Shown here piece after piece: positions 13,799 to 17,512 of a DNA stretch of 64,000 nucleotides. The notes beneath the pieces are model-generated. The model saw nothing but the letters and a program-made list of their open reading frames with translations, was not told the DNA's origin and ran no database searches. Both the position numbers and the translations under genes were made by a program. Position 1 is the first letter of the stretch, and each line of letters opens with the position of its first letter. Location: NCBI RefSeq assembly GCF_056746865.1, contig NZ_CM163382.1. One strand, given 5' to 3'.

Positions 13799-14572
13799 AT
13801 GAAATCTGCCACCTCTGCGCAAAGACCTTACCAGGAAGTCGGGGCGATGATCCGCGATCTGATCATAAAGACGCCGTACAATCCTGGCGAACGGCTGCCG
13901 CCGGAGCGTGAAATTGCAGAAATGCTTGATGTCACGCGGACGGTGGTACGTGAAGCGCTGATCATGCTGGAGATCAAAGGGCTGGTGGAAGTACGCCGGG
14001 GTGCCGGTATCTATGTTCTTGATAACTCAGGCAGCCAGAACACAGACAGTCCGGATGCCAACGTCTGCAACGATGCCGGTCCTTTTGAGCTGTTACAGGC
14101 GCGGCAGTTATTGGAGAGCAACATCGCCGAGTTTGCCGCTTTGCAGGCTACCCGCGAAGATATCGTCAAAATGCGTCAGGCATTGCAACTGGAAGAGCGT
14201 GAACTGGCTTCCAGTGCGCCGGGCAGCAGCGAAAGCGGTGACATGCAGTTCCATCTCGCTATTGCCGAAGCAACGCATAACAGCATGCTGGTGGAGCTGT
14301 TCCGTCAGTCCTGGCAGTGGCGGGAAAACAATCCAATGTGGATCCAGTTGCACAGCCATCTGGATGACAGCCTGTATCGCAAAGAGTGGTTGGGCGATCA
14401 CAAACAGATCCTCGCCGCGTTAATCAAAAAAGATGCCCGAGCGGCGAAGCTGGCAATGTGGCAGCATCTGGAAAACGTTAAGCAACGTCTGCTGGAATTC
14501 TCGAACGTTGACGATATTTATTTTGATGGCTATCTGTTTGATTCATGGCCGCTGGATAAAGTCGACGCCTGA
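13799..14572 (+). CDS. uxuR: GntR/FadR-family transcriptional repressor UxuR
   Basis: 257 aa with N-terminal GntR-type winged HTH (...RLPPEREIAEMLDVTRTVVREALIMLEIKGLVEVRRGAGIYV) and FCD-type C-domain; follows uxuAB. Confidence 0.9.
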   Translation: MKSATSAQRPYQEVGAMIRDLIIKTPYNPGERLPPEREIAEMLDVTRTVVREALIMLEIKGLVEVRRGAGIYVLDNSGSQNTDSPDANVCNDAGPFELLQARQLLESNIAEFAALQATREDIVKMRQALQLEERELASSAPGSSESGDMQFHLAIAEATHNSMLVELFRQSWQWRENNPMWIQLHSHLDDSLYRKEWLGDHKQILAALIKKDARAAKLAMWQHLENVKQRLLEFSNVDDIYFDGYLFDSWPLDKVDA

Positions 14573-14585
14573 CTTATTATAATAA

Positions 14586-14616
14586 GCGCAAGGGTAAACG
14601 TTCCTTGCGCTTTCTT
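14586..14616 (+). terminator. Rho-independent terminator after uxuR
   Basis: GCGCAAGG-GTAAACGTT-CCTTGCGC hairpin followed by TTTCTT. Confidence 0.55.
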
Positions 14617-14712
14617 AAATTAAGAAGTCGCAATGAGTATTACTTTGTAAATTGCAGGGTATTGTTTAGCTATCTGTATAACCTGAATGTTAGTACTCAT
14701 TCTTCCTGGTAG

Positions 14713-15543
14713 TTATTTACCAATATAATTCCATTCACCATTTTTTAATTCAAACAGTTCTGGAAGAGATGACGGTTGCAGAGTCATACGTTTGAGTGGT
14801 GCATTTTCATCACCCGGGATAACTTTATATCCCATTTTTGCATGGATCTCCGCGGTACCGGGATAGGCTTCTATACCAATTATTGGGTCATTACCCAACT
14901 CAATATTAGCATTAAGTAATGCGGCAAGGGCGAATCCGGAAGAATTTGCTACCCCTGTTACCGTCATTATCTGATCAATATAGATATCAATCCTTGGCTG
15001 CTCATTGGTCCATCTTTTTGCCTGAGAAGCTGGAAGGGTTGAAATATATCCTATCGTGGTTCCGGCATAACCAGGAACATTGCAACCAGGGCCTAATGTT
15101 ATTTCATGAACTGTATAGTCCTCAACAGGATCGAAAGGGCTCTTCATAAATAAATTTAGCCGTAAACCTTCTGCTAACTCTGTGGTAGCATGCGCCTTTT
15201 TACATATGCCACCATATATTTCGTCTAAAGCTGAGGTGATTTTCAAGTTCCGATAGAGCATACGTCCTGTTGTTGTAATACCATCGGATTCTCTGCATGC
15301 TCCTGTCACATAATTAAATGGCCAAGGCTCTTTACTAATATCAAGTTTTCTAATTTCGACAACGCTTTTTCCATCGTAATTATGGTTATTGCCACGAGTA
15401 AGAGGCGGAAGATAGATGTTTTCCGAATCCATGCGTGCATATTTTAATTTACGTGTAAACTCACTGTCGACTATTGGGTGATGAAGGAAGTGAGCATCTG
15501 TAATAATTTGACTCTGAAGGGCATTGCTTAATGGCATAGACAT
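14713..15543 (-). CDS. yjiC: Uncharacterised protein YjiC
   Basis: 276-aa ORF with no recognisable motif; position and length match the yjiC I recall next to uxuR in E. coli. Confidence 0.7.
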   Translation of the reverse strand: MSMPLSNALQSQIITDAHFLHHPIVDSEFTRKLKYARMDSENIYLPPLTRGNNHNYDGKSVVEIRKLDISKEPWPFNYVTGACRESDGITTTGRMLYRNLKITSALDEIYGGICKKAHATTELAEGLRLNLFMKSPFDPVEDYTVHEITLGPGCNVPGYAGTTIGYISTLPASQAKRWTNEQPRIDIYIDQIMTVTGVANSSGFALAALLNANIELGNDPIIGIEAYPGTAEIHAKMGYKVIPGDENAPLKRMTLQPSSLPELFELKNGEWNYIGK

Positions 15544-16215
15544 AATAGTTACCTTTTATGAGTATTTCACTGATGTTTAGAAAAATAGATAAATTTTTCT
15601 GTAGTAAAAAGAGAAGTAAACAAATGACATGCATGTTTCTGTTGTAGTGATATCAACTCTACACGGTGATATTAAAGGGTAGGAAACACTCTAAAGTATC
15701 AAAAAACGCTCATTTAAAATTATTTGCATGCAATTTAAAAGCATATCTTATTACTAATTGGAATTTGATGTTGCTATATTGAGGTCTATATTAATAATGC
15801 CTGTGAATGGTATTTTTGATGTATTTGATATGTTATCAATTTATATTATTTACAAACTAATTGTTTCAAATAATACATGGCTGATTATGCGGAAATAAAT
15901 AATTTCCCACCGGAATTAAGTAGCAGCGGTGACAAGTATTTTCATCTACGTAACTATTCGGAATATTCAGAATATACTAGCGGTTTTTTTTTGAGTTTGA
16001 TGATTTTTATCAAATCATGACTTTTTTCCTGAAAAGTCAGTAGATATTCATAGGCAAGTAAGGTTTTATACTTTGCTGACAGGATTCAGGCCTGTCTCAG
16101 ACTGACATGGATGTAATGAACAAAAGGGAATGGCTATGGAAAATGAGCATCAATACAGTGGTGCCCGGTGTTCAGGGCAAGCCGCATATGTTGCTAAACG
16201 TCAGGAGTGCGCAAA

Positions 16216-16608
16216 ATGATGCGACAATCACTTCAGGCTGTTTTACCTGAAATTTCAGGCAATAAAACGTCATCGCTGCGTAAATCGGTATGCAGCGATC
16301 TCCTCACTCTTTTTAATTCTCCTCATTCGGCATTACCGTCATTACTTGTTTCAGGCATGCCCGAGTGGCAAGTGCATAACCCGAGCGACAAACATCTCCA
16401 GAGCTGGTATTGCCGTCAGCTGCGTTCTGCACTGTTATTTCATGAGCCACGGATTGCGGCGTTGCAGGTTAATTTGAAAGAAGCGTACTGCCACACTCTG
16501 GCGATCAGCCTTGAGATAATGCTGTACCACGACGATGAACCGCTAACGTTTGATCTGGTCTGGGATAATGGCGGTTGGCGCAGTGCGACGCTGGAGAATG
16601 TCAGCTAA
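16216..16608 (+). CDS. iraD: Anti-adaptor protein IraD (inhibitor of RssB-mediated RpoS degradation)
   Basis: 130 aa from [21 protein letters not shown]...; the track ORF starts 3 codons upstream at 16207. Confidence 0.8.
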
Positions 16609-17512
16609 GCACAATCTCCAGCTCGCGCAGTTCACGCCAGAAGCGTTCGGCAACGGGATTCATGCGGGTATTCATCCGGTATGCATAGGCCTGAATCGGG
16701 ATCACCAGTTCGTCCCGATTCAGTACAACGAGCTTCCCGCTGCGAATTTCTTGTTGGATGGCGTACTCCGGCAGCCAGGCAATCCCACAGCCGTCGAGGG
16801 CAACCTGCTTTAAAAGCTCGCTCATCGAAGAGACAAAAAAGGTGCTGAAACTTAACTCACTGTGGCGCGTCAGGGTGCGATTAATCAATCGCCCCATGTA
16901 GGAGTTGCGGCTGTAATTCAGTAACGGAAAGTGTGGCTGCGCGAGGTTAAAAAGTGCTTCTCCGTGTTCGTCACTGGCGCAGACAGGGAACAATTGAGAT
17001 TCAAATAAGCGAATGTGGTCAAACGGCGCTTCCAGCAAATCTTCGTCGTGAAAGGAAAAAATACAGTCACTTTGCCCTTCACGCAGTTTATCGACCGCTT
17101 CATCGACATCAATAGCTTCAATTGCCCAGGTAAAGAGCGGCGGCATCTGGCTGATAATGGACGGTAACAGCCCGAGGGAAAGAGAGTGTGCAGCGGCTAT
17201 CTTGATTTTTCGTTGCGCGTAATCGCTGCCGCCACGCAGCTCTGCCAGATTGCTCTCTAACTGTTGCAACAGATGGCGGATCTGCGAATGGAAGATTTTC
17301 CCTTGTTCTGAGAGTTGCAGCGGCGTTACCTGGCGGTTAAACAATTCAACACCAATCGCCTGTTCCAGCGCACGGATGCGGCGGCTGAATGCCGGTTGCG
17401 AGACGTTGCGACTGACTGCCGCCTGGGAAAAATTGCGGCATTTTTCCAGGGTCAGAAAATCATAAAGCCATTTGGTTTCAATATTATGCAAAATCGCACC
17501 ACAGTCATCCAT
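16601..17512 (-). CDS. hypT: LysR-family transcriptional regulator HypT (YjiE)
   Basis: 303 aa with N-terminal LysR HTH ([35 protein letters not shown]); 3' end overlaps iraD convergently by 8 nt. Confidence 0.85.

Follow-up and report, generated by a model that had tools for sequence, protein, structure and literature searches.

Introduction

What lies between the divergent genes yjiC and iraD in Escherichia coli, and does this DNA do more than keep the two genes apart? The question arose from a sequence-only reading of the window, the 64,000-nucleotide (64-kb) stretch of DNA analyzed here. That reading had described the roughly 670 bp upstream of iraD as an unusually long, AT-rich, non-coding region with no convincing ORF, which probably holds multiple promoters and a long iraD 5' UTR and could encode an unannotated small RNA. 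The window corresponds to positions 4540778-4604777 of E. coli K-12 MG1655, and the NC_000913.3 annotation reproduces its genes; window coordinates, used throughout, are genome coordinates minus 4540777. We find that the position, length and composition of the region bear the observation out, and that the control region it points to is already known and is neither new nor non-coding. The yjiC/iraD spacer is very probably a divergent control region, a dense and already dissected regulatory unit rather than an empty spacer.

Length, composition and identity of the spacer

Positions 15544-16215 are exactly the gap between yjiC and iraD, from the start codon of yjiC (14713-15543, minus strand) to the iraD ATG at 16216. 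The divergent neighbor yjiC encodes a DUF2686 protein (annotation and Pfam PF10887, E = 1.8e-165) and has a GC content of 0.35-0.43; iraD (16216-16608, plus strand; annotation and NCBIfam NF010726, 303 bits) encodes the anti-adaptor that protects RpoS. According to the annotation tables, the intervening 672 bp are the longest gap between conventional genes in the 64 kb, and the runners-up measure 618 (yjjP/yjjQ), 498, 481, 478 and 477 bp. The GC content of the spacer is 0.323, compared to 0.501 for the window as a whole, and the 0.55% of 672-bp segments that are as low all lie at the yjiC/iraD locus. The minimum over 200 bp is 0.24, at 15700-15899, and the A/T tracts include a run of nine T residues (T9) at 15984-15992. 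Thus, the length, the AT-richness and the A/T tracts that had drawn attention to this region are all confirmed.

The description of the region as non-coding does not survive comparison with the reference annotation. NC_000913.3 places three small genes, ytiC, ytiD and idlP, inside the spacer, and lacZ fusions to the frames designated ORF23, ORF47 and ORF27 show that all three are translated (Park et al. 2017, PMC5574718). The statement that there is no convincing ORF fails on a second count as well, since idlP is mechanistically required for iraD translation. The 672 bases of the spacer match those of BW25113 and other K-12 records with 100% identity, and they are the same DNA as the iraD P1/P2 promoters and idlP leader that have been studied in K-12 (Park 2017, PMC5574718; Sass 2021/2022). 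All of the published K-12 coordinates, namely the starts at -417 and -137, the CsrA sites BS1-BS4, the DnaA box at -81 and the ATGA overlap between idlP and iraD, map onto the spacer with no difference.

The segment closest to yjiC (15544-15764) has no mapped element and is the least conserved, with 54% identity to E. albertii. It presumably holds the promoter and 5' UTR of yjiC; the minus-strand RNA fold of this segment is unremarkable (z = -0.03).

Two promoters upstream of iraD

The iraD start sites were reportedly first mapped by Merrikh in 2009, a result that we take from its restatement in later papers. The published starts are at -417 (P1) and -137 (P2) (Sass et al.); 280 nt separate them, and the first GGA comes 3 nt downstream of the P2 start (PMC5574718). 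Each published coordinate falls on a fitting motif in the window. For P1 (15765-15799, plus strand), a -35 hexamer TTGATG at 15765-15770 and a -10 hexamer TATATT at 15787-15792, separated by 16 bp, precede the start at G15799, and this pair was recovered by a consensus promoter scan independently of the literature. For P2 (16044-16079, plus strand), the -10 hexamer TATACT at 16067-16072 matches the published start at A16079. Promoter-like sites in the consensus scan were not in excess over dinucleotide shuffles (6 versus 5.2 +/- 2.3).

P1 is sigma-70 dependent and rises in late log phase, with ppGpp and with AZT (Sass et al. and sigma-factor data), and P2 is constitutive, active in all growth phases and dependent on sigma-70 or sigma-S. 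Both promoters are responsive to ppGpp and DNA damage, and their response to the replication inhibitor AZT is independent of LexA. Luciferase fusions carrying the identical 672 bp have been reported, as have effects of the DnaA box at -81, ppGpp, AZT and SspA, the last being a further input to iraD (Sass et al.). In AZT RNA-seq data, no gene of the genome is induced more strongly than ytiC, at 260-fold, and the inductions are 33-fold for ytiD, 18-fold for idlP, 14-fold for iraD and 11-fold for yjiC; the response of ytiC, ytiD, idlP and iraD is LexA-independent, and the same paper describes ytiC as cotranscribed with iraD. The expected multiple promoters are therefore present as P1 and P2, and the expected long 5' UTR is the 417-nt leader of the P1 transcript. 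This promoter and leader interpretation is right, and it was published between 2009 and 2022.

The role of DnaA is less settled. At -81 lies a putative DnaA box (16135-16143, minus-strand sequence TTTTCCATA) that overlaps the idlP start codon; the box, given as TATGGAAAA, was studied by mutagenesis and EMSA (Sass et al.). DnaA ChIP-seq detected no binding at iraD (PMC11317965), and direct control of iraD by DnaA is disputed for that reason.

A leader ORF couples CsrA to iraD translation

The gene closest to iraD, idlP (b4722 in NC_000913.3, 16136-16219, plus strand), is a 27-aa leader ORF, the 'ORF27' of Park. It has a Shine-Dalgarno (SD) sequence, AAGGGA, 7-8 nt before its ATG at 16136, and its TGA (16217-16219) overlaps the iraD ATG (16216-16218) in the tetranucleotide ATGA. 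Translational coupling of idlP and iraD has been shown in vivo and in vitro, and CsrA represses idlP, as established by footprints, toeprints and mutants (Park et al. 2017, PMC5574718). The reported protection covers -112 to -103, -90 to -84 and -78/-77. We placed the four sites, BS1-BS4 (16082-16140, plus strand), by computing positions from the published footprints: their GGA motifs lie at 16082, 16109, 16127 and 16138, that is, at -134, -107, -89 and -78, and match the reported footprint positions, the binding itself being taken from the literature. BS3 is the idlP SD sequence, BS1 acts on P1 transcripts only (PMC5574718), and a further GGA that CsrA does not bind sits in the iraD SD sequence at 16204. 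The GGA motifs of BS2 and BS3 are invariant in six lineages, BS1 is restricted to K-12-type E. coli, and BS4 is lost in E. albertii.

The minimum free energy (MFE) fold predicts a hairpin at 16200-16238 (plus strand) that encloses the iraD SD sequence (GGAG, at about 16204) and start codon by pairing GGAGUG and AUG. Park et al. report an SD-sequestering structure, with RNase T1 mapping in support (PMC5574718). Across six lineages, 94-100% of cells in this hairpin are paired, with zero compensatory changes. The P2 leader as a whole folds no better than its shuffles (z = -0.22), and RNAalifold found double changes at 2 of 33 pairs, with a covariation term of -1.36, in an alignment of six sequences that are 85% identical. 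The K-12 MFE structure evaluated over the six lineages likewise contained no compensatory pairs and scored no higher than shuffles, six sequences being too few for such a comparison.

The resulting mechanism operates as follows. iraD is transcribed from the distal P1 (15799) and the proximal P2 (16079), the 417-nt leader of the P1 transcript carrying ytiC, ytiD and idlP and the P2 transcript only idlP. The hairpin would bury the iraD ribosome-binding site, so that IraD synthesis would rely mainly on ribosomes that translate idlP, disrupting the hairpin and stopping at the overlapping ATGA. CsrA bound to the GGA sites around the idlP SD sequence blocks translation of idlP and hence of iraD. The steps from P1/P2 transcription to the CsrA block of iraD are shown in the literature.

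Comparative data bear on what is selected in idlP. The frame, the 27-codon length, the SD sequence and the ATGA overlap are intact in all ten Escherichia sequences, and the six sequences that differ from K-12 carry 6-12 non-synonymous codon changes versus 0-2 synonymous ones. Because the frame is kept while the changes are mostly non-synonymous, idlP appears to be selected for in-frame translation and not for its peptide, and would thus be a coupling device rather than a functional peptide. The leader smORFs of the pssL and yoaL type (Weaver et al. 2019, bioRxiv 10.1101/511675) are likewise short upstream ORFs (uORFs) that have their own SD sequence and end overlapping the start of the regulated gene, and there, as with idlP, losing translation of the uORF reduces translation downstream. 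In contrast to that comparison, the input at idlP-iraD is CsrA acting on the ribosome-binding site of the leader ORF, with no ribosome stalling or attenuation, and the peptide sequence of idlP is free to drift.

We also considered whether idlP might be a relic of an hcp 3' end. Searches with Hcp (tblastn) and hcp (blastn) against seven Escherichia upstream regions gave only chance matches (E of at least 0.8), and this idea was dropped. The nearest non-Escherichia relatives of IraD are Citrobacter tssE genes in T6SS clusters, with 48-54% identity; these lie directly after hcp, and one overlaps it.

A proposed composite origin for the spacer

When species-representative genomes were scanned with IraD, all of the loci returned were from Escherichia. 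In four of these lineages (L004, L006, L007 and L008), similarity to K-12 breaks off at the uxuR stop codon and picks up again at about 15937-15952, and uxuR and iraD are only 406-417 bp apart. The block from 14573 to about 15950 is missing from these four lineages and from E. coli A22 (L013), where uxuR is followed by 414 bp and iraD. The 414-bp spacer without yjiC occurs, at 95% identity or more, in 492 of 5426 complete E. coli genomes, UTI89 included, and has no annotated feature inside; the long K-12 form is found in 4903 of the 5426. E. albertii (L005) has yjiC and the entire spacer at about 75% identity. As regards gain versus loss of the yjiC block, E. albertii has it and four other lineages are without it.

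Besides yjiC and the promoter side of that gene, the block takes in P1, ytiC and the first half of ytiD, and its GC content is 0.24-0.43. The segment that remains is the better conserved: identity to E. albertii is 90% in the P2 segment, and in an alignment of five E. coli strains the least variable part is 16021-16078, with variable columns at 0 of 58 positions, together with 16079-16135, with 1 of 57. We infer from these comparisons that the spacer is an evolutionary composite, in which 14573 to about 15950 behaves as one insertion/deletion block. The right-hand ~265 bp (about 15950-16215, with P2, the palindromes upstream of it and idlP) would represent the ancestral Escherichia iraD promoter and leader, and the left-hand ~400 bp (P1, ytiC and the 5' half of ytiD) would have come or gone with the low-GC yjiC. 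The spacer would then be long because a low-GC yjiC-P1-ytiC block adjoins an older P2-idlP core.

A composite of this kind invites the view that the distal ~400 bp are a horizontally acquired, H-NS-silenced AT-rich spacer with no dedicated function, and that only the P2-proximal part matters for iraD. The low GC content, the presence/absence polymorphism of the block and its tolerance of IS1 insertions and deletions all fit such a view, as does the inclusion of the spacer in the 'promoter islands' of Panyukov and Ozoline (2013, PMC3661553), where it is entry 4554354_526 yjiC/iraD, marked as H-NS bound in two ChIP datasets and overlapping predicted foreign DNA; our conversion of the older coordinates used there to the window is approximate. 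We nevertheless regard it as very unlikely that the distal part is inert: P1 drives the late-log rise of iraD and is AZT-inducible in fusions controlled with a P1 -10 mutant (Sass et al.), CsrA BS1 acts on P1 transcripts alone (PMC5574718), and ytiC RNA increases 260-fold on AZT. The spacer resembles promoter islands in its low GC content and in being part of a presence/absence block. It differs in that most islands give little productive RNA, whereas the yjiC/iraD island has a mapped, regulated and productive P1, and in that the excess of promoter sites typical of islands was not seen by our consensus scan, the published study having used a different predictor (PMC3661553).

Conserved DNA blocks upstream of P2

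Three short blocks upstream of P2 persist across the lineages. The first, TATTCGGAATATTCAGAATAT at 15955-15983, was identified in a repeat search as 1-3 copies of the 9-bp tandem unit TCRGAATAT and is kept in all six Escherichia lineages, with one copy in E. albertii and three in P0097. A gSELEX peak for HusR has been reported between ytiD and idlP, with the proposed motif CAGAATATACTAGCGG (PMC12844172); we locate this motif at 15968-15983, where it overlaps the conserved block. The other two blocks, at 15996-16014 and 16019-16038, are conserved inverted repeats, TTTGATGA..TATCAAA and GACTTTTTT..AAAAGTC, which form hairpins in the MFE fold (15996-16038). All three are retained in lineages that lack P1, and they are for this reason more likely to be DNA sites serving P2 than parts of the P1 leader RNA.

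ytiC and ytiD as protein-coding genes

In NC_000913.3, ytiC (b4720, 15797-15898, plus strand) is annotated as a 33-aa ORF with an internal ATG at 15830 that yields a 22-aa form, and it matches the Pfam family PF23685 (YtiC-like) with 93.8 bits; ytiD (b4721, 15877-16020, plus strand), the 47-aa 'ORF47' of Park, straddles the junction between the island and the ancestral segment. PGAP annotates small CDSs in most other E. coli genomes, with ytiD and idlP named in most of the 4903 carriers, and in BW25113 it calls the 22-aa form of ytiC from the ATG at 15830, which is probably Park's 'ORF23'. The names ytiC and ytiD most likely derive from Park's ORFs, given the consecutive numbers b4720-b4722. 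Weaver 2019 was considered as their source and set aside, as that paper has no mention of either gene and merely cites Park 2017. The annotated ytiC ATG (15797) sits 2 nt upstream of the mapped P1 start (15799), and the 33-aa form would thus need a leaderless or alternative transcript, unless its start is misannotated.

Could ytiC, and perhaps ytiD, be functional micro-protein genes, with YtiC a small hydrophobic membrane peptide made on replication stress? Translation of both ORFs, the existence of a Pfam family for ytiC and its place as the most AZT-induced gene of the genome would suit this idea. In addition, YtiC hardly varies over residues 1-27 among five E. coli strains, and E. albertii has a hydrophobic 26-aa ORF beginning at most 3 nt from the ytiC start position. 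However, a hydrophobic frame of 26 codons is not rare in T-rich DNA of 30% GC (we estimate about 0.1 per frame), and ytiC shares only 49% nucleotide identity with E. albertii. In three of the five E. coli strains (L011, L012 and L014), codon W28 reads as a stop, the two mutations responsible being G15879A and G15880A, and these polymorphic stops truncate the C-terminus of ytiC. One of the two doubles as an ATG-to-ATA change in ytiD, whose start codon is lost in this way in two of the five strains (L011 and L014).

ytiD is poorly constrained. Its first ~60-75 bases belong to the indel block, in E. albertii its N-terminal half is riddled with stops, and its database variants include frameshifts at the T9 run and 1-3 copies of the 9-bp unit, read as SEY, SEYSEY or SEYSEYSEY. 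YtiD forms 72 clusters at 90% identity, all of them from E. coli, Shigella or one further Escherichia, and outside E. coli the gene is either missing or disrupted. Neither ytiC nor ytiD is preceded by an SD sequence, 492 E. coli genomes do without the entire block, and removal of the start codon of either gene left iraD expression unchanged, with no phenotype known (PMC5574718). The combination expected of a micro-protein, a kept frame and start together with a bias toward synonymous change, was found in neither. It is therefore unlikely that either ORF is a functional micro-protein gene, and ytiD in particular, judged by its pattern of variation, is probably a fortuitous ORF that is translated but not selected as a protein.

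A useful point of reference is provided by tisB/istR-1 and dinQ/agrB, which are systems of DNA-damage-induced small hydrophobic peptides with RNA antitoxins. Like them, ytiC combines a hydrophobic peptide of ~30 aa with an RNA that is strongly induced by replication stress. Unlike them, its induction is LexA-independent, and no antitoxin RNA, toxicity or membrane localization is known for it; the gene is also missing from 9% of strains.

Search for a small RNA in the leader

The suggestion that the spacer could encode an unannotated small RNA found no support in any of the searches that we made. A scan of 14400-16800 against Rfam 15 returned only chance-level matches, with scores well short of gathering. 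None attained a tenth of the gathering E-value range of any family; the top match, to a eukaryotic snoRNA model, scored 24 bits where the cut-off is 50. A terminator scan of 15300-16400 gave no terminator-like site. Among the Term-seq entries listed by Adams 2021, obtained under conditions of low P1 activity, there is no 3' end in 4556300-4556899 and no entry for iraD, ytiC, ytiD or idlP. As for covariation, there was no compensatory support in six lineages, a result that is uninformative because the sequences are too few.

Self-complementarity looked promising at first. The P1-P2 segment folds at -71.8 kcal/mol, compared to -50.5 +/- 4.7 kcal/mol for its shuffles (z = -4.5), and 0 of 200 shuffles folded as well. 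The reverse complement of the segment gives z = -4.0. An excess that is the same on both strands would come from inverted repeats in the DNA and is not specific to RNA, and a structured P1 leader RNA was therefore dropped as a candidate. It is also for this reason that we read the inverted repeats upstream of P2 as sites acting at the level of DNA.

These data bear directly on whether the spacer produces a discrete, unannotated trans-acting sRNA, which could be either a short P1 transcript ending at T9 (15984-15992) or a minus-strand antisense RNA. For the former, T9 lies 186 nt downstream of P1, and the AZT induction drops along the leader from 260- to 33- to 18-fold, which fits partial termination or processing; for the latter, a promoter-like site on the minus strand, at 15839..15812, would direct transcription across P1. 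The P1-P2 z score would be expected of a folded RNA, were it not matched on the reverse strand. T9, for its part, has no GC-rich stem before it, is not conserved in other lineages and varies in length within E. coli, with the ytiD frameshifts as a consequence. Together with the absence of an Rfam family match, a terminator-like hairpin and a 3' end among the listed Term-seq entries, and with the loss of the left part of the spacer from 9% of E. coli genomes and four sister lineages, these observations make a discrete sRNA extremely improbable.

A weaker version of this proposal is that the P1-specific leader is more than passive, either because a leaderless, stress-induced YtiC has a role in damage tolerance or because the palindrome-rich RNA could be regulatory or processed. 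The position of the ytiC ATG at the P1 start, the 260-fold AZT response and the z score of -4.5 are compatible with an active leader and do not prove one, and we consider it quite unlikely.

Significance

The yjiC/iraD spacer sets the level of IraD, which keeps the stress sigma factor RpoS from being degraded. Starvation (ppGpp and SspA), LexA-independent replication stress and carbon status (CsrA) are integrated at the spacer, and all of this had been published previously. What our comparison contributes beyond the literature is modest: it proposes that the spacer is composite, it brings out a 414-bp haplotype that lacks P1 and holds an unannotated idlP-like uORF, and it contrasts the constraint acting on each of the three small ORFs. 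The ~9% of E. coli genomes without P1, UTI89 among them, should lack the P1-driven late-log induction of iraD, and they keep an intact, unannotated idlP-like uORF.

A short haplotype of the uxuR-iraD interval

In E. coli A22 (locus L013), uxuR and iraD are separated by a spacer of only 414 bp (L013 1528-1941) from which yjiC, the iraD promoter P1 and the small ORF ytiC are all missing. This form is shared by UTI89 and 490 other genomes and is found in 9% of complete E. coli genomes. RefSeq annotates zero features within the short spacer; it carries an intact, unannotated idlP-like uORF of 27 codons, MEYEHQPSGVRQPGQDTDATKRQECAK, that keeps the ATGA overlap with iraD. The uxuR terminator hairpin is wholly different in the two haplotypes, lying at window 14585-14612 in the long K-12 form and at L013 1530-1565 in the short one. 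The gene after iraD in A22 is ptsP-like, in place of hypT. On the uxuR side of the long form, the supplement of Adams (2021) lists a plus-strand site at window ~14706 (genome 4555483), which lies antisense to yjiC at its 3' end and suggests that uxuR transcription continues into yjiC.

Insertions of IS1 into the AT-rich yjiC/iraD region have occurred repeatedly. Two IS1 copies stand in place of window ~14655-16090 in NZ_AP023286.1, which therefore has neither yjiC nor either iraD promoter. A single IS1 lies between idlP and iraD in NZ_CP170374.1 and should uncouple iraD from idlP, and an IS1B is found within the spacer in NZ_CP071073.1.

ytiC and the segment between P1 and P2

The curated K-12 ATG of ytiC (33 aa; window 15797-15799) begins 2 nt 5' of the published P1 start (-417, window 15799). 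Either a leaderless or alternative transcript is translated, or the true start is the ATG at 15830, which gives the 22-aa form that PGAP calls in BW25113. In natural strains the W28 codon of ytiC (15878-15880) has become a stop through separate changes, G15879A or G15880A, the first of which also converts the overlapping ytiD ATG to ATA.

Between the two promoters, each strand of window 15799-16078 is far more self-complementary than its dinucleotide shuffles (z = -4.5 for the plus strand, -4.0 for the minus strand), owing to several inverted repeats and to a long-range pairing between 15799-15809 and ~16046-16056. The palindromes upstream of P2 are conserved.

iraD, its neighbors and its relatives

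The convergent hypT and iraD overlap by 8 bp at their coding ends (window 16601-16608). A 605-bp contig labelled Bacillus coahuilensis m4-4 (NZ_ABFU01000118.1) is 99.8% identical to window 16088-16692, spanning idlP, iraD and the end of hypT, and is almost certainly E. coli contamination of that draft assembly.

Outside Escherichia, IraD has its closest relatives in tssE baseplate genes on three Citrobacter contigs (L017, L019 and L021, each at 2501-2881), where they sit within tssB-tssC-hcp-tssE-tssF-tssG clusters. Some Citrobacter tssE genes bear the NCBI label 'anti-adapter protein IraD', which looks like over-annotation; the iraD of Escherichia is an orphan copy.
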